DNA of 57,106 bases from a virus (lineage: Duplodnaviria; Caudoviricetes). Where the stretch lies: positions 1 to 57,106 of IMG/VR virus record IMGVR_UViG_3300048897_000037. The stretch is one strand, 5' to 3'. Below, piece by piece: positions 12,743 through 42,722 of the stretch. Within the stretch, counting starts at the first letter, position 1. Each line of letters opens with the position of its first letter. Below the pieces are notes generated by a model. That model was not told where the DNA came from and did not search any database. It saw only the letters and a program-made list of their open reading frames with translations. Both the position numbers and the translations under genes were made by a program.

Positions 12743-12748
12743 CACCAC

Positions 12749-15353: not shown

Positions 15354-17688
15354 TCCCAACCCGGCACGGGGTATGCCGCTGCAATTGCAGAAGTACTGGC
15401 TGGCCGGCAAGGGGGCAGCCAAGATTCGGTGGAACATCCCCGGCGACTTCAAGCGGTGCGTGCGCAACCTGCGCAAGTACTTCCCCAAGAACCCCGAGGG
15501 CCTGTGCAACATCCTGCACACCAAGGCCACCGGAGGCCCGCCCGGACACGGCTCAGCGGAGAAGCCACTGCACGCCTTGCACGCCTCCATGGTGGGCCAC
15601 TACAACCTTGAAGCTCTCACGGCCGCCCAGGCCCTGATGGACAAGCAGCCCCAGCTGGGCCGGTACACCTGGGCCGCTCCCCTGGCCCCCATTGGCCGTC
15701 CCACGGCCGAGCCTCGGCGCTCCCGGGTGTTTGAGCCTGGCTCCCTGTACCACCGGACGCTGCCGCTGCCCCTGGACTTCCGGGAGCGCCAGGCGCCCGG
15801 CCACACCGGCGCCGTCACCGTGGGCCGGATCCTGGGCCTCACCTACGGGCCCGACCACCAGGGCAATGAGTACGCCTGGGGCTGGGGTGACTTTCTTGAC
15901 GAGTCAATTATCCCGGACGCAACAAAGGCTCGGTACCTGGCCGAGCAGGGCGTCTACGGCACCAGTCTGGACCCGGGCGGTCCGATCACGGCCGGCGTGG
16001 ATCCGGAGTCCGGCCAAGAACACATGATCAAGTTCGGTATCGGCGGGGCCACCATGGTGCCGATCGAGGCCTTCACCTTGATGCGGATGCACGTGTTCGA
16101 CAGCGAGGATGGCGACTGGCCCGAGGACGATCCGGATATGCAGGCCCTCATGGAGGGCGAGGACTGCGGGTGCGGCGAACCGAAGGCCATCACGGCCGCC
16201 GTGAACTCGTCCGGCTGGCGCGGACTCCCCCTGGCGCCTCGGGAAGCCGTGTTCGACAACGACGACGCAGTGAAGCGCATCACGGCCTGGGCCGGTGGGG
16301 ATGCGGCCAAGATGCAGAAGGCCTTCATGTGGCACAGCGACCAGGGCAACCCGTTGGACCCCACCAGCTATCGACTGCCACTGGGCGACATCATCAACGG
16401 CGAGCTGACCATCATCTTCCACGCCATCTACGCCGCCGCCGCGCTGATGTCGGGCGCCCACGGCGGCCTTCCGGATGTGTCCCCCCACGACGACGCCGAG
16501 ATCCGGAGCACCATCAGCGCGATCTACGCCGAGATGGCGCACGCCTTCGGCGACACCTCTGTCCGTGCCCCATGGGACCGGTCAGCACAGGAAGGAGTAC
16601 AGCTCAGCATGGACCAGTTCGCAGCAGCAGAACCCTATGGGGACGTCAAGTACGCCGACCCGGGCTACCGGGACGGCAAGAAGCGGTACCCGATTGACAC
16701 CGAGGAGCACTGCCGCGCGGCATGGTCCTACATCAATCAGGCTGACAACGCGAAGATGTATAACGCCACCCAGCTGAAGGCAATCAAGGACCGCATCATG
16801 GCTGCCGGGAAGAAGTTCGGCATCAAGTTCTCTGACAACAACGGGGACGAAGGCGCCAAGGAAGGTAGCAAGCAGGACATGGAGTACTCGTCCGCCGGAA
16901 TCCCGATCACCCCACCCAAGGCGTGGTTCGAGGATCCCAAGTTGCCCCGCAAGACCAAGCTCACCGTTACCCCGGAAGGTCGGGTGTACGGCCACCTGGC
17001 GGCCTGGAATGAGTGCCACCGCGACGTGGCGATGCGGGAGTGTGTGCTGGCGCCCAAGTCCATGTTGGACTATGCGCCGTTCCACCTGGGGTCCACGCTC
17101 ACGGCTGAGGGGGAGCTGATCGACACCGGGAAGATCGTCATGGACACCCGGCACGCCAACATCAACCTGGGGTACGCGGCCACCGCCATCCACTACGACA
17201 ACACGGGCGACGAGATCGCCACCATCCGCTGCGGCGAGGACGAGTTCGGCATCTGGTTTGCCGGAGCCGTGGTCCCCGAGGCGACCCCGGCGAAGATCGC
17301 CAAGCTGCGTCGGTCCCCTCTGTCCGGGGACTGGCGACGGGAAAAGGGATCCCTGGAGCTGACCGCCGCTCTGGCCGTCAACGCCCCCGCCTTCCCTGTG
17401 TACGCGATGGAGGACGACGAGCGCCTGGCCCTGGTTGCAGCCGGCTCGGTCTGGTACGACGACGGGGACTACATCCTGGCCTCTGATGTGCCGACTGGGA
17501 TCGCCAACGCCATCACCTCGGCTGTCAACGACGCCTTCGCTGCCCAGGAGGACGACAAGGCCGCCGAGGAGCGCGAGGAACGGTTGCGGGATCTGCTGGA
17601 AGACGACGAGATCTACGCTCGGCGGGACCGCCAGGAACGCCTCATGAAGGTGTTCACCGTCGACCAGACCGGAGTTCTTCAGCGATGA
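15346..17688 (+). CDS. capsid maturation protease with inserted domains
   Basis: HTGAVTVGRI, GRVYGHLAAW, LSGDWR motifs; DUF6582-like insert RYPIDTEEHCRAAWSYINQ. Confidence 0.7.
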   Translation: MADPNPARGMPLQLQKYWLAGKGAAKIRWNIPGDFKRCVRNLRKYFPKNPEGLCNILHTKATGGPPGHGSAEKPLHALHASMVGHYNLEALTAAQALMDKQPQLGRYTWAAPLAPIGRPTAEPRRSRVFEPGSLYHRTLPLPLDFRERQAPGHTGAVTVGRILGLTYGPDHQGNEYAWGWGDFLDESIIPDATKARYLAEQGVYGTSLDPGGPITAGVDPESGQEHMIKFGIGGATMVPIEAFTLMRMHVFDSEDGDWPEDDPDMQALMEGEDCGCGEPKAITAAVNSSGWRGLPLAPREAVFDNDDAVKRITAWAGGDAAKMQKAFMWHSDQGNPLDPTSYRLPLGDIINGELTIIFHAIYAAAALMSGAHGGLPDVSPHDDAEIRSTISAIYAEMAHAFGDTSVRAPWDRSAQEGVQLSMDQFAAAEPYGDVKYADPGYRDGKKRYPIDTEEHCRAAWSYINQADNAKMYNATQLKAIKDRIMAAGKKFGIKFSDNNGDEGAKEGSKQDMEYSSAGIPITPPKAWFEDPKLPRKTKLTVTPEGRVYGHLAAWNECHRDVAMRECVLAPKSMLDYAPFHLGSTLTAEGELIDTGKIVMDTRHANINLGYAATAIHYDNTGDEIATIRCGEDEFGIWFAGAVVPEATPAKIAKLRRSPLSGDWRREKGSLELTAALAVNAPAFPVYAMEDDERLALVAAGSVWYDDGDYILASDVPTGIANAITSAVNDAFAAQEDDKAAEEREERLRDLLEDDEIYARRDRQERLMKVFTVDQTGVLQR

Positions 17689-17915: not shown

Positions 17916-20900
17916 GTGGGACTGGGCAGCTTTTGGGACCCGAACGACCACCCTCGCGGGTGGCACGGTCGGTTCGCGAAGAAGTGGAAAATCTCCGACA
18001 CGCTTCGGAAGCTGCTCGACGGTTTCACCCCTCGTACGTTCCAGTCGGACAGTCAGGCTGGCCAGTACGCCTTCAACCAGGGCCACAAGAACGGGCCGTT
18101 CTCCTCCGTTGAGCTGACCCGGCTCCGCAAGGACTGGGACGAGGCGCAGGACCACATCAGGGCTGGGGACATGGATCCCCAGACCAAGGCCTTCGACGAC
18201 ATGATGCAGTCCCACATGCATCCGACGTCGGACGGCTTGATCGCCACCACTACGTTCGGCGCGGATGCCTTGGGGCTGCGACCCGACCAGTTGCACGACG
18301 GTCCGGGCGGCATCACCGACCTGTTCGGCACCGTGCTGGGCAACAAGGGATACCAGGCCGTACACCTTGGTACGGATGTCACGCCCGGACAGCATGGTCC
18401 CGGCAAGATCAGCGCCACCATCATGGTGCCGGCCGGAACCCGGGTCGCCTTCCCTGGCCAGTCCCCCCAGGACCGGGGCTTCTTCCTGGACAAGGAACAG
18501 CCCCTGCTCGTCACCCGGATCGACCCGGACGGCATGGGCGGCTGGCGCATCGCTGCGGTCGCCGAACCGCACCCAGGCGTGGGTGCCTCTCAGGTCAGCC
18601 AGGACCTCAACCCCGGTCGCAAGGGGGTAGGCCTCACCCCTGAGGAGCGAGCCGCCCGACTGGCGGAACCATCCACCATGCCAGCACCGGCCACCCCCCA
18701 GGCTGCCCCGGCCACCGAGGCCGTCATGCGCCCCGAGTCGGTGCAGGCGCCCGCCGTGGGCCGCACCCCGGAGCAGGAGGCGGCGCGGGTCCAGCGCGCC
18801 CAGGCTGGGCGGCAGGCCAACGTCAACGAGGGCAACCCCCCGGTCCAGGCCCCACTGCCCACGCCCAACCCTCGGCCAGCCCCAGCCCCACCACCGGCCG
18901 CCGGGCCCCCGTCGCCCACCGGGGTACCGGACCGCAACGAGCCCATCCACGCCCCCTCCATCGGAGGAACAGGCAACGAAGGCAAGTCGGCTTCTGAGAT
19001 TGCCAACCGGCCACCAGAGCCGGCTCCGGAGCCTCCACCGGCGCTGTCCCCGGCAGAGCAGGGCAAGTCGCTCAAAGACGCCTATGTGGAGAGTGGCATC
19101 GAGTCCCCGGCTGCCGGCCCGCACCGGGCTGCCTTCAACCGGGCCTACCTGAACGCCAAGAGTCAGAACGGGCACCCGGAGCAGGCTCTCCGCAACCTGG
19201 AAGCCGACATCAAGTCGGTCGAGGAGAAGGCGGCCGAACAGAAGGTTCACCCCAGTGACCGGGCCGACATGCTCACCGCCGAGGCCGATGCCAAGTCAAT
19301 GAACGACCTGGCCGACCTGATCGCCACACACTTCGGACTACCTCGGGCCAAGAAGGAGGAGAAGGCTCCTAGCTCCCCGGTGCAGCGCACCGGGGCACCT
19401 GATGAGTTCCTGGGCGAGAAGAAGCCGGGCGCCCGCGAAGCCCGCAAGGTGTCCGGGCAGCCATCCCGTAGCGCCACCGGCCTCACCGAGCACGAACAGG
19501 CCGGCGCCGGGCCAGGTACGGCCGGCGTGGGTGGGCGCAAGGAGGGGGCTCCGGAGACTCCCGCGCCGCGCGGCTCCACTGGCACCACCAAGGAGACCCA
19601 GAAGCCCACGGTCAGCGCTGCCCGGGTGAAGGCCGGCGACGTAGTCCTGGCGCGCAAGGATGAGAACGGTAACTGGGTCCACACGTCACGCAAGACGGGC
19701 GCGACTCCGATCACGGTGACCGGCAAGCAGACTGGCAACGGGGCCCACATCATTGAGGGAACCGATCCTGAAGGCAACAAGGTCACCCTTCAGCCGATCC
19801 GTGGCCAGAACGTTTTGCACCGCCACCAGGAGAAGGCGCCCAAGGCGCCGGCCGCCAAGAAGGCGGCCAAGGCTGCGGCGCCCCAGGAGAAGCCGCTCTC
19901 TCACGACGAGATCGCCAAGCGTTCGGCCGAGATGCTGGCCCGTCCACCGGCTACCGGAGGCAAGGAGCAGCCACCGCTAACCGAGGCGGATCACCGGGAG
20001 ATGCTGGCCGGCAACAGCAAGGATCAGCTCCGCAAGATCGGTGAAGACCTGGGCGTCTCGGTGTCCGATAAGGACTCCAAGGCGTCCATGATCGACAAGA
20101 TCGCACCGGCTGCCGCTGCCGACACCGCCAAGCGGCGGGCCGAACGCGTGGCCGGCGAAGGTCCGAGCCCGGCCCTGGGGGAGCGTCAGAGCGCCGACAC
20201 CCCTGCCGTGGACCGTGTTCTGAAGGCCTACAACGACATCGTGGCCCAGGGCGACGGACACGACCGTCGTGTGTCCATTGCGGACATTCGGGCCGAGGTG
20301 GGCGGCGACCTGTCCCGGGCCGAACTGACCCGGGCGCTGCGGGAGATTGGTCGCGGCAACTCCGAGCACGGCGGCTTGCTGTCGCGTGGGGTGAAGCCGG
20401 ACGCCCGCACTGAGGCCAGCGGCATGGACATGGGCGGGGAGAAGGTTCACTTCCTGCAGCTCCCGCGCCCAGGCGAGAAGGAGCGTGGTAAGGAGACCAC
20501 CCCGGTCCCGAAGGAGGAGCCAGCCAAGGCGGTCGCCAAGGCGGCCAAGGCTGTACCGACCAAGGCCCCTGCGAAGGAAACCGGCGACCAGGCCGAGGTC
20601 TCCAAGGTTGCGAGCGCCTTCCATGCGGATTGGCAGAAGACGCAGGCACCCGAGGGGTCTGGCCGCAAGCCCAAGTTCAAGACGACCAAGGACGAAGCCT
20701 GGATCAAGAAGCACGGCACCGATCAGGTCGATATCGCCAACACCTCGTACGCTGATCTGCCCGACGACTGGCAGAAGGAAAACCGAGACGCGGCGGAGGT
20801 AGTGCAGCGCATCCTCAAGGAGCACGGCGGCACTGTTGATCTTTCTGACGAGAAGACGCGCCTTGAGGTTGGCGACCAGATCCACAAGGCTTGGCTGTCC

Positions 20901-23900
20901 CGGGAAAACAACAGCCACGCCAAGGGTGGTGAGCTGGACAAGCCTTTCTCGGAACTCTCCCGCGCAGAGCAGGACAAGGACACCGACCAACTGAAGGTCG
21001 CCATGGAGGTCCTGTCTCCGGCGAAGAAGGGCGGCACCAGTCCCGAAACAGTGTCGGCGGTCAAGCAGGCGTACGAGAACATCGTGGCCCGGCGCGGACC
21101 TGATGGTGACCGCAAGGTGTCCCTGCAGGACATTCGCCAAGAGTTGGATCTGCAGCACGGCTTCAGTCGGCCCGAGGTCGACAAGGCGCTGAAGGAGCTG
21201 GGCCGTGGTGGGTCGGAGCATGGTGGCCTGATCAGCGGTACCACCAACCCCAGCAACCGGGAGGCCGCCGGGGCCATGAAGATGGGCGGCGAGGACGTCC
21301 ACTTCCTGCAGCTACCGCGTCCCGGTGAGGCTGGCCGTGGCGGGGAGGTCACGCCCAACGCTCCCGAGTCTTCTGCTGAAGCGGATGCGGTACGGAACCT
21401 GGCTCCCGCCGACCAGAGCATCTATCACCGTGCCCGGGAAAGCGGGCAGACTCATGAACAGGCCATGGCGACGGTGGCTACCCCTGCGCCGGCAGCCGAG
21501 GCTAAGCCCTTGGAGAAGATGACCAAGGCTGAGCTACTGGCCCACCCTGATGCTGCAGGAGCCAAGCAGTCCTGGACCAAGGACAAGATCAAGCAGCACA
21601 TCCAGGCAGCGCAAGGTGCCAAGACTGCTGCGGCACAACAGGAAGCGGCGAAGGTTGTAGGGAAGGCCGCCCCGCGTCCCACTACACCCATCGACAACGC
21701 CCCCCGGGCCAACGAGTTCACCAAGGCCTGGGACACGGCCGGGATCCCGGAGGCACCGGGCTCGGCCGGGCGCTCCATGAAGGAGATCCGCTCCGACCTG
21801 GCCGAGGGGAAGATCGATCCCGCTGAAGGTGTCCGGCGCATGGAGTCGGAGATCTCCTTCAACAAGGAAGAACTGTCCCAAGTGGAGGCTGACCTCCGCG
21901 CCCCGGACCTAACCGACAAGCAACGGGCTGATCTGCAGGCACAGCACGCCAAGCTCACCGAAGGAGTGAAGGCGCAGGAGAAGGCGTCCGAGTTCCTGCG
22001 CTCCCACTTCGGTGGCGAAGGCGACAAGCCCACCGTGGAGGAAGTGAAGGCGTTCCTTCCGGAAGGTTCGGAGCGCTTCCTGGACAAGGCAACCCCGGAC
22101 GAGATGCGAGATGTTGCCCGGATTCAGGGGCTGGACGAGCCGAAGGGCTCCACGGCCGAGGAGATGTTCAATGACCTGTTGAAGCAGACCGTTGATCGGG
22201 CACTCAAAGAAAAGCGGGAAGAGGGTGCCAGTAAGGCGGCCAAGGCTGAAGCGGCCCGCCTGAAGAAGGAAGCCCGAGAAGCCGGCAAGGCTGGGTTCCG
22301 ACCGGGCGGTGCCAAGCACCTGGACGCGGCGAAGATCGCCGAGGGTTTGGACCTGGGCGAGGACAACAGCTACGTCCAGGACGCCCAGGCTGAGCTGAAC
22401 GACGGCAAGACCCCGAAGCAGGTCGCCGACCGTGTTCGGTTCATGGCCCAGGGGCTGGCCAACAGTAACGCGATCATCCATGGATCTGTTGCTGCCGGCC
22501 ACGAGACGCCCGACGACAAGATGCACCGGGAGACCAAGCTCGCCGAGGGTCGGGCCGCCGTGGCCAAGCTGGAGGAACTGGCCAAGCGGATCGAGGAGTC
22601 CAAGCGCCCCCGCAAGCCTCGGGCGCCGTCCACGAAGCTGACCCCCACGGATCATGTGGCGGCCAGGGAGGCGGCCAAGGCGACCGGTACCCCGGTGGCC
22701 GAGGTGCGCTCCGCTATGGAGGACGCCAAGAAGGCCGACGCCAAGTTGCAGGAGCTGGGCATCCCCACCACGGCCGACGAGCTACACGCCCGGGTGATCG
22801 CGCGCGCCTCAGGGCCGTTCAATGACGCCAAGACCGCCGAGGAAGCACGCCGGGCTGCGACATCCATGCATGGCAACCTGACCCTGGCCGAGATCCGCAA
22901 GATGGGTGCGGAGCACGGCATCACGGGCCGGTCCAAGAAGGACATCACCGACAAGATCATTGAGCGCCGGTTCCCGCCAGAGCCAGGCGCCCCAACTCGG
23001 CTCACTGGTGGCCAGTTCGACCAGTTGAAGGCCGGCGACCCCATCGACATCCACTTGGGCGGCAGCAAGACGCGCAAGGACTCGGTGGCCAAGGTGGACC
23101 CGGATGGCACCCTGCACACGAAGGGTGGCTACAAGTACGGACCCACCAGCGACGTGCAGATCTCCCGGGGCGGAGCGGCCGACACCCGGCCATCCACGCC
23201 GGCTCGCAGCGCCCAGGTGGAGCGGGCCCGGAAGACGGCCGACGTGGTGGCCGAGGTTCACGAACTGGTGGGCAATGGGGCCAGCCCCGACGCCATCCGG
23301 GCCCGGCTGCGCACGGCCGGCCAGGCCAACGGAATCGACACTGCTGAGCTGCAGTCCCTGGCTGATGACCCACAGGCGCTCACCAAGGCGGCTGACAAGC
23401 TGGGCACCTCGGCCGGCCTGTCCCGGGTGGGGGACGTCGGATCCACGACGCCGTTCAACCGGACCAGTCACGAAGGACCCAGTGGCCGGGATCTGGGCAA
23501 CGGGGAGAACGTCCGGGTGACCCGTCCAGGCCACACTGCACGCCTCAGTAACGGCGAGGATGTCACCATCAGCCGGCCCAAGGTGCACCCGGTGTCGGCC
23601 GAGCCAGCGAAGGCAACCCCGGCGAAGCGGGCGGCCAAGAAGGCTCTCCCGGGCCCCCAGGCCAGTCCTCAGGAAGCCTTGGCGGCACTGAACAATGCGA
23701 ACAGCTCCACCACCCGTGAAGAGGCACACGGGATGATCGAACACTTCACGCGTGACGAGCTGATCAGCATGGCCAAGGAGCTGTCAGTTCCCAGCGCCAG
23801 CAGCAAGAGCAAGAAGGCTCTCCGTGATGACATCGTTCATGCGACGGTGGGAGTTCGAGCTGACTCTGAGGCAACCCGTGACCTTCTCCGAGCCCCGCGC

Positions 23901-24821
23901 GCCGGAGACAACGGCTTCCTGCCGACTGACCAGGAGCGACTGGGTGGCCGCCTTGCAGCGGCCAAGAAGGCAGCCAAGGGGGCCGGCCCGGCCGCTGAGC
24001 CACGACTCAGCCCTGCAGCGGAGCAGGCCCGCCTGGAGCAGGAGCGGGCTGACAACATGGCCCGGCTGGCGGCGGCCAAGGCAGTGAAGAAGGCCGCCCC
24101 GACCAAGGCCGCGCCCGCCAAGAAGGAGCGGTTCAGCGAGGCGGCGGCCGAGAAGCAGTTCGGTCCGCAGCCTGGGGAGGCCCGCATTGAGTCTGGCAAG
24201 TTCTCCGACAAGCCGTTGCGTCAGCAGACCTGGGGCGGCCGGGCTCAACCCAATGACGTCCGGTTCCACGAAGATGGAGCTATTGGCAGTGCCCTGAGTT
24301 CGATGGGCCAAGACAAGCGCCTGGATGTTGGTGGCGAGCCGCTCTACAACGTGCTGGGTCAGATCGCCACGGACGTGAACCGTGGAAACATCACCCCGGC
24401 CCAGGGCCTGGAGCGGTACAAGGCCTTGGCGGCTCGACTTCCAGAAGGCAGCAATGCAAGGAAGGAGCTGGAGTACGCCATCCAGAAGATTGACTCCCCT
24501 CCGCGCAAGCCAAACCTGCCAGAGGGGACCCCGGACTACCTTCGGAAGCTGGCTGACCGGTTGGCCGAGATCCCCATTGCCCGCAAGGATGTTGGACGCA
24601 CTGGACGCAAGGGTGAGCTGGACCAGGTGGAGGAGCTGGCCCGACTGTTGACTGACGGAGAGCCCAAGTCTCGATTCACGGCGCAATCCGCACTGGAGAG
24701 GATGATGGGTACCCGGCACGAGAGCGACAGTGACGCCGGGGACCAGCAGATCCTTGCAGCCATCCAGGAAGCACTGAAGGATGAGGAAAGAGCACGGATG
24801 GCCGCCCGTAAGGCGAAGTAG
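17916..24821 (+). CDS. giant multidomain head-associated/ejected protein (degenerate ART, wHTH x2, RyR-like, HeH repeats, GrpE-like)
   Basis: 2301-aa ORF in head module; N-terminal WDPNDHPRGWHGRF motif; domain motifs listed in findings. Confidence 0.75.
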   Translation: MGLGSFWDPNDHPRGWHGRFAKKWKISDTLRKLLDGFTPRTFQSDSQAGQYAFNQGHKNGPFSSVELTRLRKDWDEAQDHIRAGDMDPQTKAFDDMMQSHMHPTSDGLIATTTFGADALGLRPDQLHDGPGGITDLFGTVLGNKGYQAVHLGTDVTPGQHGPGKISATIMVPAGTRVAFPGQSPQDRGFFLDKEQPLLVTRIDPDGMGGWRIAAVAEPHPGVGASQVSQDLNPGRKGVGLTPEERAARLAEPSTMPAPATPQAAPATEAVMRPESVQAPAVGRTPEQEAARVQRAQAGRQANVNEGNPPVQAPLPTPNPRPAPAPPPAAGPPSPTGVPDRNEPIHAPSIGGTGNEGKSASEIANRPPEPAPEPPPALSPAEQGKSLKDAYVESGIESPAAGPHRAAFNRAYLNAKSQNGHPEQALRNLEADIKSVEEKAAEQKVHPSDRADMLTAEADAKSMNDLADLIATHFGLPRAKKEEKAPSSPVQRTGAPDEFLGEKKPGAREARKVSGQPSRSATGLTEHEQAGAGPGTAGVGGRKEGAPETPAPRGSTGTTKETQKPTVSAARVKAGDVVLARKDENGNWVHTSRKTGATPITVTGKQTGNGAHIIEGTDPEGNKVTLQPIRGQNVLHRHQEKAPKAPAAKKAAKAAAPQEKPLSHDEIAKRSAEMLARPPATGGKEQPPLTEADHREMLAGNSKDQLRKIGEDLGVSVSDKDSKASMIDKIAPAAAADTAKRRAERVAGEGPSPALGERQSADTPAVDRVLKAYNDIVAQGDGHDRRVSIADIRAEVGGDLSRAELTRALREIGRGNSEHGGLLSRGVKPDARTEASGMDMGGEKVHFLQLPRPGEKERGKETTPVPKEEPAKAVAKAAKAVPTKAPAKETGDQAEVSKVASAFHADWQKTQAPEGSGRKPKFKTTKDEAWIKKHGTDQVDIANTSYADLPDDWQKENRDAAEVVQRILKEHGGTVDLSDEKTRLEVGDQIHKAWLSRENNSHAKGGELDKPFSELSRAEQDKDTDQLKVAMEVLSPAKKGGTSPETVSAVKQAYENIVARRGPDGDRKVSLQDIRQELDLQHGFSRPEVDKALKELGRGGSEHGGLISGTTNPSNREAAGAMKMGGEDVHFLQLPRPGEAGRGGEVTPNAPESSAEADAVRNLAPADQSIYHRARESGQTHEQAMATVATPAPAAEAKPLEKMTKAELLAHPDAAGAKQSWTKDKIKQHIQAAQGAKTAAAQQEAAKVVGKAAPRPTTPIDNAPRANEFTKAWDTAGIPEAPGSAGRSMKEIRSDLAEGKIDPAEGVRRMESEISFNKEELSQVEADLRAPDLTDKQRADLQAQHAKLTEGVKAQEKASEFLRSHFGGEGDKPTVEEVKAFLPEGSERFLDKATPDEMRDVARIQGLDEPKGSTAEEMFNDLLKQTVDRALKEKREEGASKAAKAEAARLKKEAREAGKAGFRPGGAKHLDAAKIAEGLDLGEDNSYVQDAQAELNDGKTPKQVADRVRFMAQGLANSNAIIHGSVAAGHETPDDKMHRETKLAEGRAAVAKLEELAKRIEESKRPRKPRAPSTKLTPTDHVAAREAAKATGTPVAEVRSAMEDAKKADAKLQELGIPTTADELHARVIARASGPFNDAKTAEEARRAATSMHGNLTLAEIRKMGAEHGITGRSKKDITDKIIERRFPPEPGAPTRLTGGQFDQLKAGDPIDIHLGGSKTRKDSVAKVDPDGTLHTKGGYKYGPTSDVQISRGGAADTRPSTPARSAQVERARKTADVVAEVHELVGNGASPDAIRARLRTAGQANGIDTAELQSLADDPQALTKAADKLGTSAGLSRVGDVGSTTPFNRTSHEGPSGRDLGNGENVRVTRPGHTARLSNGEDVTISRPKVHPVSAEPAKATPAKRAAKKALPGPQASPQEALAALNNANSSTTREEAHGMIEHFTRDELISMAKELSVPSASSKSKKALRDDIVHATVGVRADSEATRDLLRAPRAGDNGFLPTDQERLGGRLAAAKKAAKGAGPAAEPRLSPAAEQARLEQERADNMARLAAAKAVKKAAPTKAAPAKKERFSEAAAEKQFGPQPGEARIESGKFSDKPLRQQTWGGRAQPNDVRFHEDGAIGSALSSMGQDKRLDVGGEPLYNVLGQIATDVNRGNITPAQGLERYKALAARLPEGSNARKELEYAIQKIDSPPRKPNLPEGTPDYLRKLADRLAEIPIARKDVGRTGRKGELDQVEELARLLTDGEPKSRFTAQSALERMMGTRHESDSDAGDQQILAAIQEALKDEERARMAARKAK

Positions 24822-24833
24822 AAGGAGAAGATC

Positions 24834-25004
24834 ATGCCCTGCGCTTGCAACGGTGGTGCGACTCAGTCGACGGCTGCCCAAGACAAGGAGTACGAGGTCA
24901 AGCTGCCCAACGGGCGCACAGAGTACGTGCGCGGGGAGCACGCGGCCAAGGTCGCGGCGACCATGGGCGGTCCCGGTACCACGTACTCCGCCACTGGACG
25001 CTGA
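24834..25004 (+). CDS. small protein (MPCACNGG...) of the kind found before actinophage capsid genes
   Basis: AAGGAG RBS, 56 aa, followed by terminator. Confidence 0.7.
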   Translation: MPCACNGGATQSTAAQDKEYEVKLPNGRTEYVRGEHAAKVAATMGGPGTTYSATGR

Positions 25005-25006
25005 AC

Positions 25007-25042
25007 GCAAAGAAGCCCCCACCGAAATGGAGGCTTCTTTGC
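25007..25042. terminator. bidirectional terminator
   Basis: GCAAAGAAGCC/GGCTTCTTTGC IR where the head operon and the antisense RNA operon converge. Confidence 0.8.
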
Positions 25043-25065
25043 TGCTGGCCTAGATCCCTCTACCA

Positions 25066-25147
25066 ACCCCACCCTGGAGGGAAGCTGAGCGACCCCGAAG
25101 GGTTTCTGCTACCTGGCTGGCAGCTTCGTCAGGCTTAACGGTGGGAC
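25066..25147 (-). ncRNA. type I hammerhead ribozyme
   Basis: minus strand GTTAAGC-CTGACGA-A-GCTGCC-AGCCA-GGTAGC-A-GAAA-CCC-TTCG-GGG-TC-GCTCAGC: complete core, GUC site, UUCG-capped stem III. Confidence 0.75.
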
Positions 25148-25192
25148 TTGCACCTCTCATCACACCTCACCAGCACGGAGAGGTCTTAAGCG

Positions 25193-25266
25193 TGATCCGA
25201 GGAGGGGTCGAACCTCCGACGCGCGGGTTAAGGGCCCGCCGCTCTTGACCGCTGAGCTACCGGATC
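25193..25266 (-). tRNA. tRNA-Lys(CTT), C33 variant, no encoded CCA
   Basis: GATCCGG/TCGGATC acceptor, GCTC/GAGC D stem, GCGGG-CCCTTAA-CCCGC, GGAGG-TTCGACC-CCTCC. Confidence 0.9.
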
Positions 25267-25273
25267 GGGTGGC

Positions 25274-25346
25274 TGGAACTGGTGTCCCAGTCGAGGGGAC
25301 TTCTACACGGTAGCGACCCGTGTTTTCGTGAGGCCTCAACCAGCCC
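25274..25346 (-). ncRNA. tRNA-like cloverleaf RNA
   Basis: GGCTGGT/ACCAGTT then CCA; ACACGG-GTCGCTA-CCGTGT; GTCCC-CTCGACT-GGGAC T-arm-like. Confidence 0.5.
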
Positions 25347-25351
25347 AACCG

Positions 25352-25427
25352 TGGCGCAGGTCGGATTCGAACCGACGATCTCGGGCTTATGGGGCCCACG
25401 GGGACGACCGAACTCCCCTACCGCGCT
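25352..25427 (-). tRNA. tRNA-Met(CAT), initiator-like, C33 variant
   Basis: AGCGCGG/CTGCGCC (A1xC72 mismatch), G11:C24, TGGGC-CCCATAA-GCCCG, GTCGG-TTCGAAT-CCGAC. Confidence 0.88.
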
Positions 25428-25431
25428 CTGT

Positions 25432-25493
25432 TGGTGCCACGCTGCTTGGACAGCCGCACCACTAGACCTGCTACTCCAAGCCCGCTGGTCCAG
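25432..25493 (-). ncRNA. kissing-loop RNA motif (copy B)
   Basis: CTGGACC..GGGCTTGGA..GGTCTAG plus TGGTGC-G-GCTG-TCCAAG-CAGC-GTG-GCACCA. Confidence 0.6.
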
Positions 25494-25500
25494 GTAACCC

Positions 25501-25529
25501 ACCCTACCCAGGCCTCTTGACGGTTGCAA
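25501..25529 (-). promoter_or_regulatory. promoter of the antisense RNA operon
   Basis: TTGCAA-N17-TAGGGT. Confidence 0.65.
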
Positions 25530-25545
25530 CATGTTGATCTACCCT
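25517..25545 (+). promoter_or_regulatory. promoter of the capsid operon
   Basis: TTGACG-N17-TACCCT, overlapping the divergent promoter. Confidence 0.6.
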
Positions 25546-25642
25546 TCGCCCAACAGGTGTCTGGCTTCTGTGCCGGCTTGCTGAGCGGTGGATGCGGCCT
25601 GTCCCTCACCAAGGATGATCGACTTCCTTGTGAGGAGTGACA

Positions 25643-27373
25643 GTGTTCCAAATCCCCGAGGACCTGGACCAGTTCAGTGTCTCCAGCTTGCAGGATCTGG
25701 CCAAGATCGCGCGTGACGAGTACACCGCGCTGAAGGAAAACGTCCGTATCGAGACGGTCACCGCTGAGGAAATCGAGCGCCTGGAGGAACTCCAGGGCTT
25801 CGTGTTCAGCACCGTTCCCACGGAGATCGCCGCGCGCCAGGAGCTGTCCGACCGGTTCACGGCGGCCACCACCGAGCCCAACACCGAGGAGCCGGCCGAG
25901 GAGGCCCCCGCCACTGAGGAGCCGGCGGTTGAGGCCGTCGTGGCCTCCACCAAGGTCACCGTGGCCGACATGAAGGCGGCCGGCGGCGGCAACACCGAGG
26001 TCACCCCCGCCGGGACGACCCGCCAGTCCTACTCCACGCTGGTCGCCTCGGCGACGGTTCAGGCGCAGGGCGGCAGCTACGAGTCCGGCCAGGTCCTGAC
26101 CAGCCTCCTGGACGTGGCCAAGGTGTTCGAGGCCCGCTCCATGGCCCACAACTCGATGGCCGCCCGTGGCATGTCCACGATGACCTCGGGCCCGGTGTCC
26201 TCGCCAGTGGCCCAGCTGGTCCGCAACTACCCGGACGAGTTCTCCGTGTCCGGCACGGATGACGACTACGAGAAGCTGCTCAAGGTCGCCAACGAGGCCC
26301 GACTGCCCGGCGGATCCTTGCTCGCCTCGGTGGAGCTGGACCGCAAGCGTCTCAACACTGAGGCCCCGTACCGGGACTCTCTGGTTGCCGCGCAGGGTTG
26401 GTGTGCTCCCTCGGAGACTGACTACGACATCTGTCTGCAGATCACCACGGACGGCCTGTTCGACGCCCCCGAGGTGCAGGCCCGCCGGGGCGGCATCCGG
26501 CACAACACGGGCCTGGAGTTCGACACGATCTTCGGCGACGGCACCGGGTTCTTCAACCTGACTGAGGCCCAGGTTGCGGCCGGCACCACCAAGACCTGCG
26601 TCGAGATCCCCTGCCCCAGCTTCACTGACACCCGACTGGGTGTCACCGGCCTCTGCCTGACCGGCAACATCCTGGCCATCCGGGGCTACCCGGAGATGAC
26701 CGCCACGTTCACCCGGGGTGCCCTGGCGGCGTCCGCGCACCAGATCAACCGGGAGCAGATCGCGGTCGTGGCGGCCGGCTCCACGGCGGTGTCGCTGGCC
26801 AACCAGCCGTACACCTCCGACGGCAGTGTCGTGTCGCAGGTTCTCAGCGCGGTCGAGATGGCCATTGTGGACATCAAGTACCGGCTGCGGCTGCAGCGCT
26901 CGGCCACCCTGGAAGTGCTCATGCCGTTCTGGATGGGCGCCCAGATGCGGGCCGACTGGATTCGGCGCAACGCCACCGGGTCTGGCCCGGACGCTCTCAC
27001 CCTGGCTGACTCGGCGATCAGCGCGGCCTACGCGGCCCGTGGGGCCCGGGTCCAGTACGTGTACGACTGGCAGGACGCCTTCTCCTCGGCGTCGCTGTCG
27101 GGCGGCGGCCCTGGCGCGGACACTCCGATGACTGAGCTGCCCACCTCCCTGCAGTTCATCGTGTACCCGTCGGGTACGTGGGTCAGGGCGGTGTCCGACG
27201 TCATCACCCTGAACTCGGTCTACGACAGCACCAAGCTGGCCACCAACCAGGTCACGCACCTGTTCACGGAAACCGGCTGGGCGATGTTGAAGATGTGCCC
27301 ACTGTCTCGCATCTACACCGTGGCCATCTGCCCCAACGGCAGCACTGGGGTTCAGCGCGCGGTGACTTGCTAA
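25643..27373 (+). CDS. major capsid (hexamer) protein with N-terminal scaffold-like region
   Basis: LVAAQGWCAPSETDYD, ARRGGI, K-C-EIPCP-F motifs of cluster-B-like MCPs; GAGGAG RBS (alternative start 25637). Confidence 0.88.
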   Translation: MFQIPEDLDQFSVSSLQDLAKIARDEYTALKENVRIETVTAEEIERLEELQGFVFSTVPTEIAARQELSDRFTAATTEPNTEEPAEEAPATEEPAVEAVVASTKVTVADMKAAGGGNTEVTPAGTTRQSYSTLVASATVQAQGGSYESGQVLTSLLDVAKVFEARSMAHNSMAARGMSTMTSGPVSSPVAQLVRNYPDEFSVSGTDDDYEKLLKVANEARLPGGSLLASVELDRKRLNTEAPYRDSLVAAQGWCAPSETDYDICLQITTDGLFDAPEVQARRGGIRHNTGLEFDTIFGDGTGFFNLTEAQVAAGTTKTCVEIPCPSFTDTRLGVTGLCLTGNILAIRGYPEMTATFTRGALAASAHQINREQIAVVAAGSTAVSLANQPYTSDGSVVSQVLSAVEMAIVDIKYRLRLQRSATLEVLMPFWMGAQMRADWIRRNATGSGPDALTLADSAISAAYAARGARVQYVYDWQDAFSSASLSGGGPGADTPMTELPTSLQFIVYPSGTWVRAVSDVITLNSVYDSTKLATNQVTHLFTETGWAMLKMCPLSRIYTVAICPNGSTGVQRAVTC

Positions 27374-33829: not shown

Positions 33830-33897
33830 CCCTATCATGATCTGGTAGCGCTTCGCCAAGACGGCCTACACCCAATGCTCCGAGGGGTGGTGACGTC

Positions 33898-35931
33898 ATG
33901 GCTATCGAAGGTCCCGGGCATGGGGAGACCATCGGTGAAGTCTCCATGGACGTCACCGCCGACGTCTCCCATTTTCCCAAGGACGTCGAGCAGGGCGTAG
34001 AGCGCGCCAGTACCGGGGTCGAGCCGGAGCTGAAGAAGGCCGGCGACAAGTGGGGCAAGACACTCTCCGACAACTTGGCCGGGCGCCTCCGCAAGGAGGC
34101 CCCCAAGATCGGCAAGGATTTCGAAGAGGCCCTTAACAAGGAGAAGGTCACCGCCACCGTCAAGGTGGGCACCGACGTCGAGGTGGACCGGGACCCTGTG
34201 GTCAAGGGGATCCGCAAGGCCATCGCGGATGTCGAGAAGGAACTGTCCGGGGCTGACACCAGTGGCTTCACGCTGTTCGGCAAGAACGTGGGGCAGGCAG
34301 TTCAGGACGGCATCGGGGCCGTCTTCAACGTATCCGGCAAGTCCCCGCTCATCGTTCTGCTGATCCCTGTCTTCGCTGCCATCGTCGGCCTGGTCGGGGC
34401 CCTCATTCAGTCCCTTACCATCGTGGGCGCGCTGCTCACCACCCTTCCTGCCATCCTCGGCGGCCTGGGTCTAAGCGCCGTCGCCCTTTACAGCGCGTTC
34501 AAGGGGCTGGGCACCGCCATCCAGGCTGCCTTCGCCGCCAAAAATGCCAGAGAACTCAATAAGGCGATCAAGGACCTGACGCCTGGCGCCCAAGAGTTTG
34601 TCAAAAACCTTCTCCCGCTCCGGTCGATCTTCAACGACATCTCCAAGGCAACACAAAACGAGTTCTTCCGGCATGCCGCGCCGGCAGTGAACCAGTTTGT
34701 TGACCTCTTGAAGTTCGCCGGGCCGTACATCACCCAACTGGCAACCACTCTCGGCATCATGGCCGACAAGCTGTCCGGCTTTTTTGGAGACGAGAAGACC
34801 CGCGCCTTCCTCTCCATGTTCGGCAATGACACCAGCAACTGGCTGAGTGGCTTCGGCGATGCGATCAAGAAGCTTCTGGAGGGGTTCCGCGACATAGGCA
34901 TCGCGGCTGAGCCGTTCCTGGTGAACTTCGGGGAGCAGTTCAACCAGTTCATTACTGGGTTCGCCGGGTTCCTTACTCAGCTGGCCAACGACCCCGATAC
35001 CCAGAAGTTCTTCAAAAGCATGGAGAACTCGGTCGCTTCGCTATTGGGCCTGCTGAACGCTGCATCGGACTTTGTCTTCACGTTCATGAACCAACTGGAC
35101 CAGGCGGGGGGCACCAAACTCCTGGACGCGTTGATCGACGTGTTCAACCAGTGGACCTTCATCCTCCAAGGCAAGCCAGGCACCGAAGTTCTGAAGGGAA
35201 TCATCACCCTCGGCGTCGGAGCTATCTACATCGTCGGTGGCCTCATCAGTGCCTTGCTGATCTTCATTGCCGACCTGCAAATCGCCGGGGAATACCTCGG
35301 TTGGCTTGGTGGCAAGATCGTCGACTTCCTGGGGTGGGCCCGGAAGAAGTGGGACGAGTTCTGGGACAAGTTCGGCGAGGGTCTCAGCGGCGTGGAGAAC
35401 AACGCGGCTCAGGCCTTCGATAACATCAAGACCAGCATCGGAAACACTATCGGCAACGTCATCGCCACCATCAAGGGCCTCCCTGGCAAGGCGGCCGACG
35501 CATTGGGGAACCTGGGTTCCGCTCTGTTCCACGCGGGGGCCTCACTGTTGCAAGGGTTCATCAACGGCATCGCCAGCAAGGTCCCCAACCTGAGTGACCT
35601 GATGCGCACGGTGGTCCACGCTGCTACCGATTGGTTGCCCGGCTCCCCGGCCAAGAAGGGTCCCCTGTCCGGCTCCGGGTACAGCCTCCTGCGTGGCCAG
35701 CGAATGATGGAAGAGTTCGCCAAGGGCATCGCCATGGGCGTGCCCTTGGTGGCCAGTGCCACCAACACGGCGGTGTCTTCGGTGAACTTCGGTCCGGGCG
35801 CTGTTAACGCCAACTTCTACGGGTCCACCCCCACTGAGGCTCAGGCCCAGACTTTGGGCAACGGTGTGGCTGCCGGTATCGGTGGCATGTTGGCGGCCCG
35901 ACAAGCGCGTGCAGCGATCAGGAGTATGTGA
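33898..35931 (+). CDS. tape measure protein
   Basis: long Ala/Gly-rich amphipathic helices; LPGSPAKKGPLSG motif near C-terminus. Confidence 0.85.
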   Translation: MAIEGPGHGETIGEVSMDVTADVSHFPKDVEQGVERASTGVEPELKKAGDKWGKTLSDNLAGRLRKEAPKIGKDFEEALNKEKVTATVKVGTDVEVDRDPVVKGIRKAIADVEKELSGADTSGFTLFGKNVGQAVQDGIGAVFNVSGKSPLIVLLIPVFAAIVGLVGALIQSLTIVGALLTTLPAILGGLGLSAVALYSAFKGLGTAIQAAFAAKNARELNKAIKDLTPGAQEFVKNLLPLRSIFNDISKATQNEFFRHAAPAVNQFVDLLKFAGPYITQLATTLGIMADKLSGFFGDEKTRAFLSMFGNDTSNWLSGFGDAIKKLLEGFRDIGIAAEPFLVNFGEQFNQFITGFAGFLTQLANDPDTQKFFKSMENSVASLLGLLNAASDFVFTFMNQLDQAGGTKLLDALIDVFNQWTFILQGKPGTEVLKGIITLGVGAIYIVGGLISALLIFIADLQIAGEYLGWLGGKIVDFLGWARKKWDEFWDKFGEGLSGVENNAAQAFDNIKTSIGNTIGNVIATIKGLPGKAADALGNLGSALFHAGASLLQGFINGIASKVPNLSDLMRTVVHAATDWLPGSPAKKGPLSGSGYSLLRGQRMMEEFAKGIAMGVPLVASATNTAVSSVNFGPGAVNANFYGSTPTEAQAQTLGNGVAAGIGGMLAARQARAAIRSM

Positions 35932-42414: not shown

Positions 42415-42722
42415 TCTTGAATCCCGAGTACATAGGACTGATCGAAAGGCTCGAAGCCTATCTCCGGAGCCGAAACGTCACAATCCCAGTCCAGATCATC
42501 AAGGTCCAAGAGGAGCTTGGCGAAGTTGCTGAAGCCTTCGTGGGCTTCATGGGCCTGAACCCCCGCAAGGGCATCACTCATACCCCCGAGGATGTGGCCC
42601 TGGAACTGGCTGACGTGGTAATGACCGCTCTGGTGGGCATCAAAATGGCCGGGTTCGAACCTGACTACATCCTGGGACTGCAGGCCAAGAAGGCAGAGGA
42701 GCGATTGAATGACGCGGCATGA
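42411..42722 (+). CDS. MazG-like nucleotide pyrophosphohydrolase
   Basis: KVQEELGEVAEA...GLNPRKG...ELADV. Confidence 0.85.
   Translation: MILNPEYIGLIERLEAYLRSRNVTIPVQIIKVQEELGEVAEAFVGFMGLNPRKGITHTPEDVALELADVVMTALVGIKMAGFEPDYILGLQAKKAEERLNDAA

Follow-up and report, generated by a model that had tools for sequence, protein, structure and literature searches.

A predicted self-cleaving hammerhead of an extended family at the 3' end of a phage tRNA cassette

Genomic organization of the tRNA cassette

The window, that is, the whole 57,106-nt stretch of Caudoviricetes DNA analysed here (IMG/VR record IMGVR_UViG_3300048897_000037), contains a short tRNA cassette that lies antisense between a major head protein gene and a small ORF. 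The head protein gene (25637..27373, plus strand, 578 aa) was assigned from its match to phrog_777 (E 2.6e-120) and from codon-position GC, and the small ORF (24834..25004, plus strand, 56 aa, beginning MPCACNGG) is conserved in relatives and ends 2 nt before a long hairpin. PHROGs also located the tape measure gene at 33841-35931 and overturned two candidate assignments, namely the 2301-aa ORF as tape measure and the 578-aa ORF as tail protein; a Pfam search of five ORFs returned no match.

Read along the minus strand, the cassette opens with tRNA-Met (CAT, 25351..25427; ARAGORN; Rfam tRNA 47.4 bits) and continues through a structured spacer (25267..25350) to tRNA-Lys (CTT, 25192..25266; ARAGORN; Rfam tRNA 55.8 bits), which encodes no CCA and ends in ...GGAUCA followed by CGC. 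The spacer, which lies outside the ribozyme described below, comprises an outer stem and three hairpins in a cloverleaf-like arrangement (MFE -29.1 kcal/mol for 25350-25272). Its identification as a tRNA or permuted tRNA was rejected, as ARAGORN at default settings called none, whether the spacer was given singly or doubled, and a relaxed threshold gave only a poor tRNA-Ala-like call. One contig of an RNA library spans 25272-25351, covering the spacer and not the ribozyme element, and carries a head-to-tail junction. Upstream of the cassette, TTGCAA and TAGGGT at a spacing of 17 nt (25500..25528, minus strand) were picked out by eye as a possible promoter; a consensus promoter scan found no promoter for the cassette.

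The long GC-rich hairpin (25007..25042), a long perfect stem between the small plus-strand ORF and the minus-strand cassette, is presumed to be a two-way terminator. In Rfam it matches only the terminator parts of unrelated leaders, and a simple terminator scan does not call it (25042-25007), the hairpin being without a T-run. The first-pass annotation of this DNA, made from the sequence alone, had taken it for the terminator of the tRNA operon. That description stands insofar as the hairpin ends the cassette, and falls short insofar as the hairpin also directly follows the small ORF, at the same place as in relatives that lack the cassette. Among contigs of four sequencing runs, positions 25017-25078 were uncovered in all; one contig of run X5, guessed to be DNA, begins at 25092, one base off the cleavage position predicted below, and was given no weight.

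A complete type I hammerhead core downstream of tRNA-Lys

Between tRNA-Lys and the terminal hairpin, on the strand of the tRNAs, minus-strand positions 25147-25066 form a complete type I hammerhead motif, and every feature that the first-pass annotation had listed for it was found again where it had been placed. The proximal part of stem I (P1a) joins GUUAAGC (25139-25133) to GCUCAGC (25090-25084) through six of seven possible pairs, with one C.A mismatch. The core C3-A9 reads CUGACGA (25132-25126), A10.1 (25125) and A11.1 (25107) flank the 6-bp hairpin of stem II (P2; GCUGCC-AGCCA-GGUAGC, 25124-25108), and GAAA follows at 25106-25103, with G12, A13 and A14 at 25106-25104. Stem III (P3) is a 4-bp hairpin, ACCC-UUCG-GGGU (25103-25092), in which A15.1 and U16.1 (25092) form the closing pair. 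The defining hammerhead positions (C3-A9, G12 A13 A14, the A15.1-U16.1 pair and a residue other than G at H17) are thus all present, in the three-helix layout in which stem I is open and stems II and III are capped.

Hammerheads cut after C17 and before G1.1. Applied to this sequence, the consensus predicts cleavage at the GUC triplet between C17 (25091) and G1.1 (25090). The earlier estimate of a cut about 100 nt after tRNA-Lys agrees with the measured distance of 101 nt (25191..25091), and because the predicted cut lies so far away it cannot define the tRNA-Lys 3' end.

No pairing was found between loop II and stem I; the stem I bulge pairs instead with a downstream segment, forming the helix termed X below. 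When the 82-nt core is folded by itself, the hammerhead (-25.1 kcal/mol) is not the minimum-energy structure (-31.9 kcal/mol): a competing fold, more stable by 6.8 kcal/mol, forms a hairpin that draws on stem III and X, and the z-score of the MFE is only -1.38.

The Watson-Crick pair at 10.1-11.1, usually G-C, is absent in the window, where A25125 stands opposite A25107. This deviation, already remarked on in the first pass, is real and is also common in the family to which the element belongs. In 50 sequences selected by their flanks, the position is G-C in 22, A.A in 14, U.U in eight, G.U in three, C.A in two and A.G in one; A.A also occurs in 29 of 66 family rows, and AT-rich viral contigs carry simple type I hammerheads that have it as well. 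Given how common it is in the extended family, A10.1/A11.1 is no ground for doubt, and, judged from these alignments, pairing at 10.1-11.1 is relaxed across the whole family. A natural U10.1-U11.1 mismatch has been published, and Perreault et al. rejected candidates with a mispair at this position (PMC3088659); the same rule would discard roughly half of the extended family.

Peripheral helices extend the element to about 145 nt

The 82 nt originally assigned to the ribozyme understate its extent. The whole element occupies approximately 25185-25041 on the minus strand, about 145 nt; the first reading had missed its closing helix and two more helices that covary. Its seven helices (Y, P0, P1b, P1a, P2, P3 and X) are arranged in the order Y, P0, Y', P1b, P1a, core, P2, P3, P1a', X, P1b', X', P0', all of which are present in the window, giving 44 pairs with a single mismatch.

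The closing helix P0 pairs UGCUGGU (25169..25175) with GCCAGCA (25043..25049), the 3' strand abutting the terminal hairpin. Around its 5' strand, helix Y joins ACCUCUC (25178..25184) to GAGAGGU (25152..25158), so that the loop of the Y hairpin encloses that strand of P0. The distal part of stem I, P1b, pairs (A)GUCCCACC, that is, AGUCCCACC (25140..25148), with GGUGGGGU(U), that is, GGUGGGGUU (25065..25073), beyond a bulge of 10 nt on the 3' side of stem I. Inside this bulge lies the 5' strand of X, UCCCUC (25077..25082), which pairs with GAGGGA (25055..25060) and encloses the 3' strand of P1b in its hairpin loop. Y and X are pseudoknot helices, with P0 and distal stem I respectively. The four peripheral helices of the window score 72, compared with 42.3 +/- 17.1 for shuffled sequences, of which 7 in 3000 reach 72.

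Some details set the window apart from most of its relatives. The main subgroup has the linkers ACAUCUGG, GGAG, GGGGAAUAACUG and CUAG, of which the window keeps CUAG only, in the UCUAG that follows X'. The c2 subgroup (L100, L108, L146 and L201) is likewise without the other three linkers and shares the window's short ones. Stem I of the window lacks a 5' internal loop that is present in the other 18 parsed members.

A widespread phage family with covarying helices and an invariant core

The window element belongs to a widespread and apparently undescribed family of phage hammerheads of about 150 bases. We assembled this family from viral contigs, named phages and bacterial genomes; a single flank pattern by itself retrieved 64 viral loci, and the named carriers are Mycobacterium phage Gaia, Arthrobacter phage Constance and prophages of M. 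abscessus. Records deposited for phages either leave the element without annotation or place 'hypothetical protein' or tRNA features across it.

All seven helices could be parsed in each of the first 19 members (19/19). In these 19 sequences, 90.0% of cells were paired, as against 68.3% after shuffling, and both sides had changed at 31 of 39 pairs. With 66 distinct sequences the values rose to 93.8% (67.0 +/- 0.6 for shuffles) and 35 of 39 pairs, the covariation score being 0.628 versus 0.160; slid controls paired in at most 45.1% of cells, and none of 500 shuffles scored as high. P1a, P2 and P3 all covary across the family, P1b is paired in 98.7% of cells, and P0 is paired in 88.8% with both sides changed at eight of eight pairs. 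The pseudoknot helices behave similarly, Y being paired in 94.0% of cells (five of six pairs changed on both sides) and X in 97.7% (six of six). Since Y and X were left out of the covariance model, their pairing counts were not fitted to it. In alignments A4 and A6 some misalignment affects the rows of the window and of c2; its effect is to depress the paired percentages, not to raise them. When the window and the c2 subgroup were aligned by MAFFT, the result was out of structural register and was excluded from the counts.

Conservation of the catalytic positions is near complete. In the 66 distinct rows U4, G5, A6, A9, G12, A13, A14 and A15.1 are invariant, GAAA is found in 66/66, and C3 and G8 are each retained in 65/66, the lone exception being phage Gaia with U3 together with A8, a double change that Perreault et al. 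reported as active (PMC3088659). H17 is C in 48 rows, A in 14 and U in one, and three c2 rows that are misaligned at this position read GUC by eye. In the sample chosen by non-core flanks alone, CUGANGA and GAAA are kept in 50/50 distinct sequences, and the Constance element carries a fully canonical G10.1-C11.1 core within the same scaffold. These alignments indicate that the catalytic core of the family is under selection.

Detection by covariance models and chance controls

With a motif descriptor tolerant of a mismatch at 10.1/11.1 and of one mismatch in stem I, both strands of the window yielded a single site, and 300 random windows generated by a first-order Markov model yielded none. 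Model R2, a covariance model with roughly calibrated E-values that was trained on 18 related elements with the window left out, had as its sole match in the window at E<=10 the segment 25193-25040 on the minus strand, aligned over model positions 1-152 at 35.6 bits and E 1.5e-6. With the window in its seed, model R1 matched 25186-25041 at 66.6 bits; among 78 matches of R1 at E<=1e-05, the window ranks well below the c1 and named-phage members, and six matches score lower.

The Rfam search proposed with the original annotation gave no hammerhead. None of the hammerhead models of Rfam 15 reported the site at gathering score, nor did they when stretches of 501 and 101 bases were scanned at E<=10; over the entire record, RF00163, RF00008 and RF02276 stayed without a match at the same threshold. 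HDV-family models in Rfam were likewise silent when the region was scanned at E<=10. The hammerhead cut-offs were reached by 0 of 25 family or hammerhead loci, and a positive control, the canonical phage type I hammerhead of locus L005, scored 23.8 bits against the RF00163 cut-off of 34. As the control is also below the cut-off, the silence of Rfam is uninformative. Nucleotide searches of the phage collection were similarly quiet: blastn with the window element alone gave no match at E<=1, as did the c2 element L100, megablast of 24000-27000 gave none, and blastn found tRNA-Met look-alikes and one unrelated 155-nt match only.

Distribution, genomic contexts and the link to tRNAs

A same-strand tRNA within 150 nt accompanies 13 of the 74 distinct elements, compared with 1.5% of positions in the same loci, which corresponds to an enrichment of about 12-fold, and in several loci (L177, L190 and L204) the element exactly fills the gap between two tRNAs. 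The remaining 61 elements have no such neighbour, a distribution that speaks against a tRNA-specific device. Other members precede genes for the terminase large and small subunits, portal and head-tail joining proteins, follow a methyltransferase gene, or lie directly after a gene for an Rnl1-like RNA ligase. By record title, carriers span at least six bacterial phyla, with one copy per genome in four of the five records searched, and near-identical copies of the window element were found in other soil runs; in the reading of habitats, shares under 0.2 were disregarded.

Close relatives of the window, represented by DNA contigs, retain the tRNA-Lys/tRNA-Met cassette, but other sequence stands in place of the element and tRNA-Lys is followed immediately by a plain hairpin, which implies that tRNA maturation does not need the element. 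Three further contigs, related through the capsid protein, have neither the tRNAs nor the element and for this reason yield no covariation. The element is likely to be an optional, portable processing module and not a dedicated tRNA device.

Proposed function and alternative explanations

Taken together, we consider it probable (roughly 0.7) that minus-strand positions 25185-25041 encode a self-cleaving type I hammerhead of the extended ~150-nt family, which acts as an optional module and cuts after C25091. The orientation of the tRNAs suggests a minus-strand transcript composed of tRNA-Met, structured spacer, tRNA-Lys, element and hairpin, in which the ribozyme would fold as a self-contained module insulated by P0. 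Cleavage after C25091, expected because the catalytic core is conserved throughout the family, would leave an upstream tRNA precursor whose 101-nt trailer ends in a 2',3'-cyclic phosphate, and a downstream 5'-OH piece of about 85 nt bearing the terminal hairpin. The two tRNAs are the only possible clients in the window phage, and the likely effect here would be a separation of the tRNA precursor from the 3' hairpin that protects it; in other phages, tRNA arrays or mRNAs would be split at a fixed point. The interpretation given in the first-pass annotation is, on balance, partly supported.

Several other explanations were weighed against this reading. An active but portable or selfish module, brought along with the tRNA cassette or placed next to it by insertion, with no specific tRNA task and with removal of the hairpin of no selected consequence, is unlikely but deserves some weight: the contexts of members are very varied (terminase, portal, head-tail, methyltransferase, RNA ligase), single copies prevail (4/5 records) across at least six phyla, and there are relatives that carry the same tRNAs without the element as well as three related contigs without the whole cassette. 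On the other hand, the roughly 12-fold enrichment near same-strand tRNAs and the members that occupy an inter-tRNA gap exactly point to some functional fit with tRNA operons. It is more improbable still that the window holds a decayed, catalytically dead copy, recognizable in structure and no longer able to cleave. Its low score among members (35.6 bits against model R2), the stem I mismatch, the more stable competing fold (by 6.8 kcal/mol) and the missing 5' internal loop, which all 18 other parsed members have, would all be expected of such a copy; however, every invariant core position is intact, as are all seven helices with one mismatch in 44 pairs, near-identical copies exist in other soil runs, and the short linkers shared with the nearest subgroup (L100, L108, L146 and L201) make the divergence look like lineage. 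A chance hammerhead-like motif, or a mere part of the terminator region, can be practically dismissed. Rfam reports no hammerhead, and very many windows were screened initially, so that rare chance motifs are expected somewhere; against this, the random windows contained 0 sites in 300, the independent family model matches over its full 152 positions at E 1.5e-6, and the peripheral helices fit the family architecture, which, with the covariation of the family, effectively refutes the idea.

Because one strand of P0 lies within the Y hairpin and one strand of P1b within the X hairpin, both P0 and P1b being long-range helices, the element might also be a two-state ribozyme, in which P0 and P1b clamp the products and Y and X release them, thereby timing the break-up of tRNA operons or late mRNAs. 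We regard this behaviour as a rather doubtful possibility. Were it correct, formation of P0 and P1b would clamp the products by about 20 bp and favour re-ligation or a stable two-piece RNA, whereas in a state that has Y and X alone, stem I would be reduced to 4-7 bp and the 3' product would be released. Such an RNA would be a natural switchable or product-retaining hammerhead and might act with RNA repair enzymes, an idea suggested by the Rnl1-like ligase neighbouring one member and by the head-to-tail junction of the spacer in the RNA library.

Returning to the self-cleaving optional module that we favour, the extended element would represent a ready-made, context-insulated self-cleaving unit. 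Cultured carriers with harmless hosts, such as Gaia and Constance, make its biology directly testable, and the family offers a natural test bed for the need of the 10.1-11.1 pair.

Comparison with known ribozymes

Hammerheads are the best-studied small ribozymes, and yet the extended family has escaped curated models. In the full-text literature we found neither the extended element nor hammerheads in phage tRNA operons (subscription journals and supplementary alignments being outside the scope), no hammerheads in actinobacteriophages, the mycobacteriophage papers being unrelated by title, and no cleavage data for any extended-family member. Papers on self-cleaving RNA and tRNA arrays in a phage setting dealt with CRISPR engineering, and the passages on hammerheads and drum RNA in a further paper do not mention the element.

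The type I hammerheads of phages and prophages (RF00163; PMC3088659) share with the family the core, the three-helix junction, the open stem I, the GUC or GUA triplet and, in the 65 canonical examples examined, an intergenic location in phage operons; the role proposed for known phage hammerheads, the cutting of long phage transcripts, is also the same (PMC3088659). The extended family differs in length (~150 versus ~50 nt), in the addition of P0 and the pseudoknotted helices Y and X, and in having G-C at 10.1/11.1 in only 22 of 50 flank-selected members, unlike canonical type I elements. The published natural U10.1-U11.1 variants (PMC3088659) have the same kind of mispair beside the core in stem II, and eight of the 50 members are U.U; the commonest mismatch of the extended family is, however, A.A (14/50), for which no mention was found in the sections of PMC3088659 consulted, and C.A and A.G also occur.

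Hammerheads with a pseudoknot between stems I and II likewise form base pairs beyond the three stems, and these are presumed to hold the active geometry in place; according to PMC3088659, a loop in one of the two stems pairs there with the loop or tail of the other. In the extended family the stem I bulge pairs instead 3' of stem I, forming X, and the Y hairpin encloses a strand of the closing helix, while the stem II loops are short (GAAA, UGAGAU, AGCCA) and have no predicted pairing.

The parallel raised in the original annotation, the theta (HDV-like) ribozymes, is borne out by the literature: these have been proposed to cut phage tRNA 3' trailers, and their reported carriers are gut Caudoviricetes that infect Bacteroidota and Bacillota (Kienbeck et al. 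2024, PMC10879173). As with theta ribozymes, the window element is a small ribozyme on the tRNA strand directly downstream of a tRNA. It differs in fold and class, having a hammerhead core and no nested double-pseudoknot HDV fold, and in its cleavage position, as theta ribozymes, in that description, cut the trailer itself and the predicted cut here falls well beyond the tRNA 3' end. Unlike the gut-reported theta ribozymes, the extended family is found in soil-type high-GC phages and in several other phyla. With the extended element, small ribozymes embedded in clusters of phage tRNA genes would be known from two independent cases, theta ribozymes being the first.

A hammerhead antisense to the virion genes

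Direct reading of positions 24900-25400 recovered on the minus strand every part of the type I hammerhead listed in the first-pass annotation, and that motif call was correct. The proximal part of stem I pairs GUUAAGC (25139-25133) with GCUCAGC (25090-25084) with one C·A mismatch and is continued past a 10-nt 3' bulge by a distal part, in which (A)GUCCCACC pairs with GGUGGGGU(U). The core CUGACGA (25132-25126), stem II (GCUGCC-AGCCA-GGUAGC), GAAA (25106-25103) and stem III (ACCC-UUCG-GGGU) follow, with C17 at 25091 and G25090 as the next base; at positions 10.1 and 11.1, A25125 lies opposite A25107. A motif descriptor loosened to fit this candidate (10.1/11.1 mismatch allowed, six of seven stem I pairs) matched this site alone on both strands of the window and gave no match in 300 first-order Markov random windows.

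The Infernal comparison with Rfam hammerhead models proposed earlier was negative: no hammerhead family was reported at the site at gathering score or, with 501 or 101 bases around it, at E≤10, and RF00163, RF00008 and RF02276 had no match at E≤10 in the whole 57-kb record. This result is not counted against the motif, because a positive control, the textbook-perfect phage type I hammerhead at locus L005, likewise fell below the cut-off (23.8 bits against RF00163, cut-off 34). Among 25 hammerhead-holding loci, none reached any Rfam hammerhead cut-off.

The record (57,106 bases, estimated completeness 88%, G+C 64%) encodes on the plus strand a portal (12743-14659), a head-morphogenesis protein (15334-17688), a 56-aa ORF (24834-25004), the major head protein (25637-27373; phrog_777, E 2.6e-120) and a tape measure (33841-35931). 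Between the head-morphogenesis and capsid genes, a 2301-aa ORF (17916-24821, plus strand) shows a coding-type GC pattern, and comparison with Pfam and PHROG at the chosen thresholds gave no match. Upstream of the hammerhead on its own strand lie tRNA-Met(CAT) (25427-25351) and tRNA-Lys(CTT) (25266-25192), separated by an 84-nt structured spacer, and a long hairpin (25042-25007) stands between the cassette and the 56-aa ORF. Since the surrounding protein genes run along the plus strand, the cassette is antisense to them and occupies the interval ahead of the capsid gene. Elsewhere in the record, ARAGORN reported a 'tRNA-???' with a two-base anticodon (cc) at 3019-3092 (plus strand), where the Rfam tRNA model scored below cut-off.

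Three viral contigs whose capsid protein is 71-73% identical keep the small ORF, a hairpin and the capsid gene and have neither tRNAs nor a hammerhead, so the cassette is an insertion in the window's lineage. Contigs from other soil/rhizosphere runs (X3, X4) retain both tRNAs and differ over 25001-25189: in one, this hairpin and ribozyme stretch is swapped for 117 other letters, and in another a simple GC-rich hairpin directly follows tRNA-Lys. Because these DNA contigs with the same two tRNAs do without it, the element is an optional module. A second swap in these relatives, just upstream of tRNA-Met, replaces the 68 bases of 25428-25495 with 85.

The spacer between the tRNAs (25272-25351) folds into an outer stem and three hairpins, one with a T-loop-like CUCGACU loop (MFE -29.1 kcal/mol), and ARAGORN called no tRNA in its linear or doubled copy. 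An RNA-seq contig from run X19 (109 nt, depth ~4, 100% identical) begins with eight letters equal to 25280-25273 and reads on the minus strand from 25351 to 25272 and then from 25350 to 25330. It thus holds a 79-nt unit and overlaps it by a further 30 nt, a pattern typical of circular or tandem units. Circular RNA could account for the junction, as could a relative whose DNA carries the unit duplicated in tandem, or an artefact. This RNA-library contig covers the tRNA spacer only, outside the element.

An extended hammerhead family

Relatives were sought in viral contigs by complementary patterns. One pattern, CUGANGA followed after a gap by the stem III sequence of the window, matched 65 loci, all plain type I hammerheads, one of them (L041) with A·A beside the core. 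Scanning for the A·A arrangement (CTGAYGAAGC...GCAGAAAC) gave at least 116 loci, and 26 of those listed had the full hammerhead architecture after a stem filter; about 15 of these 26 were simple short hammerheads on AT-rich contigs and 11 were high-GC elements whose likeness to the window reached far beyond the core. A narrower scan added further members, and blastn with one member located the element in Mycobacterium phage Gaia, in Arthrobacter phages Constance and Karkharias and in four M. abscessus phage or prophage records, where it is unannotated or lies under 'hypothetical protein' or tRNA features. In Constance (42702-42812 of its record), 'hypothetical protein' gp68 covers the 5' half of the element, and the flanks carry T-arm-like motifs where ARAGORN calls no tRNAs; in Gaia (77990-78283), gene 147 begins at the element's last bases. 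To remove the bias of core-based retrieval, a further scan of viral contigs used a pattern of just two linkers outside the core (ACATCTKGCC...GGGGAATAACTG), yielding 64 loci with 50 distinct inner sequences; pooled with earlier members, these gave 78 matches, 66 of them distinct. In a bacterial genome collection, eight of nine pattern matches were true members (E≤5e-18), in records titled Phycisphaerales, Microbacterium, Spirochaetes, Marinibaculum, Rhizobiales, Thermomicrobiales, Mycobacterium and Bacteroidetes, host assignments that are soft because many of the records are MAGs.

The first 19 members, among them the window, share one helix order: Y, P0 (5'), Y', P1b (5'), P1a (5'), CUGANGA, P2, GAAA, P3, UH and the cut, P1a (3'), X, P1b (3'), X', P0 (3'). 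Within hairpin Y lies the P0 5' strand, and within hairpin X, formed by the stem I 3' bulge and a downstream segment, lies the P1b 3' strand; Y/P0 and X/P1b may each be read either as pseudoknots or as alternative pairings. In the window, on the minus strand, Y pairs ACCUCUC (25184-25178) with GAGAGGU (25158-25152), P0 pairs UGCUGGU (25175-25169) with GCCAGCA (25049-25043) and X pairs UCCCUC (25082-25077) with GAGGGA (25060-25055). With these extra helices the element starts 7 nt past tRNA-Lys and directly abuts the terminal hairpin. In a helix search, the window's four peripheral helices scored 72 against 42.3 ± 17.1 for shuffled flanks, a value reached by 7 of 3000 shuffles.

Membership was assessed with two covariance models: R1, built from 19 sequences including the window, matches its own seeds by construction, and R2, built from the 18 others realigned without the window, provides an independent test. 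The sole R2 match in the window at E≤10 was 25193-25040 on the minus strand, spanning model positions 1-152 (35.6 bits; E 1.5e-6, roughly calibrated). Subgroup c1 and named-phage members reach 110-150 bits against R1, far above the window's R2 score. The window is thus a divergent family member, nearest by its short linkers to subgroup c2 (L100, L108, L146, L201). A conserved hairpin of the type CCUCG-GAAAGA-CGAGG lies downstream of these c2 elements (at ~3905-3960 in L100) and is followed in two members by CUUACACGCAUG. No Rfam 15 model reports the extended family.

Covariation and the catalytic core

Covariation, suggested earlier as a check, was found across the family in both alignments. 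Among 19 sequences, with both pseudoknot helices included, 90.0% of cells were paired against 68.3 ± 1.1% with shuffled 3' partners and at most 44.8% with slid partners, and 31 of 39 pairs had changed on both sides. The 66 distinct sequences gave 93.8% against 67.0 ± 0.6% (slid controls at most 45.1%), two-sided changes at 35 of 39 pairs and a covariation score of 0.628 against 0.160, none of 500 shuffles attaining the observed value, although kinship among the sequences inflates these shuffle tests and partial misalignment of the window and c2 rows lowers the pairing counts. In the same 66 sequences, helix Y was 94.0% paired and helix X 97.7%, with six of six X pairs covarying; the alignment was not fitted to either helix, since both lie outside the covariance model.

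U4, G5, A6, A9, G12, A13, A14 and A15.1 are invariant across the 66 distinct rows, N7 being U, C or A. C3 is present in 65 of 66 rows, and so is G8; the one exception is phage Gaia (UUGAUAA), whose U3 and A8 form a compensatory change of the C3-G8 pair that is natural and active according to Perreault et al. (PMC3088659). CUGANGA and GAAA persist in all 50 flank-selected sequences, two with GAAAU, and Constance has a fully canonical G10.1-C11.1 core inside the same scaffold. The catalytic core is thus under selection, and its conservation is strong indirect evidence that cleavage is the selected activity.

The A10.1/A11.1 deviation flagged in the first-pass annotation is real. Positions 10.1/11.1 in the 50 flank-selected sequences are G-C in 22, A·A in 14, U·U in 8, G·U in 3, C·A in 2 and A·G in 1, and this comparison shows a family-wide tolerance of mispairs there. 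A natural U10.1-U11.1 mismatch is on record in Perreault et al. (PMC3088659), whose pipeline rejected 10.1-11.1 mispairs unless context suggested function; this filter may explain the family's absence from curated models. A·A between core and stem II also occurs in simple short type I hammerheads upstream of ribosome-binding sites in AT-rich viral contigs (L075, L090, L099, L112, L120, L176, L185; L081, L095, L114, L147, L169, L173, L175, L131), so the mismatch is not confined to the extended family.

Genomic contexts and proposed role

Contexts were compared for 74 distinct elements, the 66 plus eight from bacterial genome records, with tRNAs called by ARAGORN. A same-strand tRNA lay within 150 nt of 13 of the 74, compared with 1.5% of positions in the same loci; Gaia's annotated tRNA-Ser would raise the count to 14. 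At three loci (L177, L190, L204) the element takes up the whole interval between two tRNAs apart from a few bases. The tRNA-processing link drawn in the first-pass annotation is plausible but too narrow. The majority of members lie away from tRNAs, for example before terminase large and small subunit, portal or head-tail joining genes, after a methyltransferase or after an Rnl1-like RNA ligase. The ligase gene, a single instance (L236, 1453-2670, plus strand; phrog_562, E 1.4e-52), ends ~40 nt before the element (2710-2856). Rnl1-like RNA ligases act in the repair of cyclic-phosphate and 5'-OH ends, as hammerheads produce. Gaia, Constance, phiGD24-3 and a complete 190-kb virus carry a single copy per genome; the short viral contig L251 has a tandem pair (2563-2700 and 2735-2879, minus strand) ~35 nt apart.

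The best-fitting reading is a portable, self-insulated processing site separating upstream from downstream RNA. In this phage, production of tRNA-Met and tRNA-Lys would require a minus-strand transcript, and the predicted cut would fall 101 nt past tRNA-Lys, in agreement with the ~100 nt first estimated, detaching a 3' piece of ~85 nt (P1a' to P0' plus the hairpin). The ribozyme would thereby take a stabilising 3' hairpin off the tRNA precursor, with faster maturation or faster decay as possible outcomes. As tRNA-Lys has no encoded CCA, its 3' end would have to be made by host enzymes, ribozyme or not. Against activity of the window copy stand the stem I mismatch, the absence of the 5' internal loop of other members, the low score (35.6 bits against R2) and the folding energy of the 82-nt core, in which a rival structure using stem III and X is favoured over the hammerhead by 6.8 kcal/mol (MFE z-score -1.38).

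No description of the extended family was found in searches of full-text papers. With theta ribozymes (PMC10879173) the sole likeness is a small ribozyme beside phage tRNAs, whereas fold, cut site and reported hosts differ from those of the window family. The closer comparison is with the type I hammerheads that Perreault et al. (2011) described from phages and prophages: the window element would work alike and falls within the core definition of that class, whereas its family adds ~100 nt of conserved periphery, a double pseudoknot topology and relaxed 10.1/11.1 positions.
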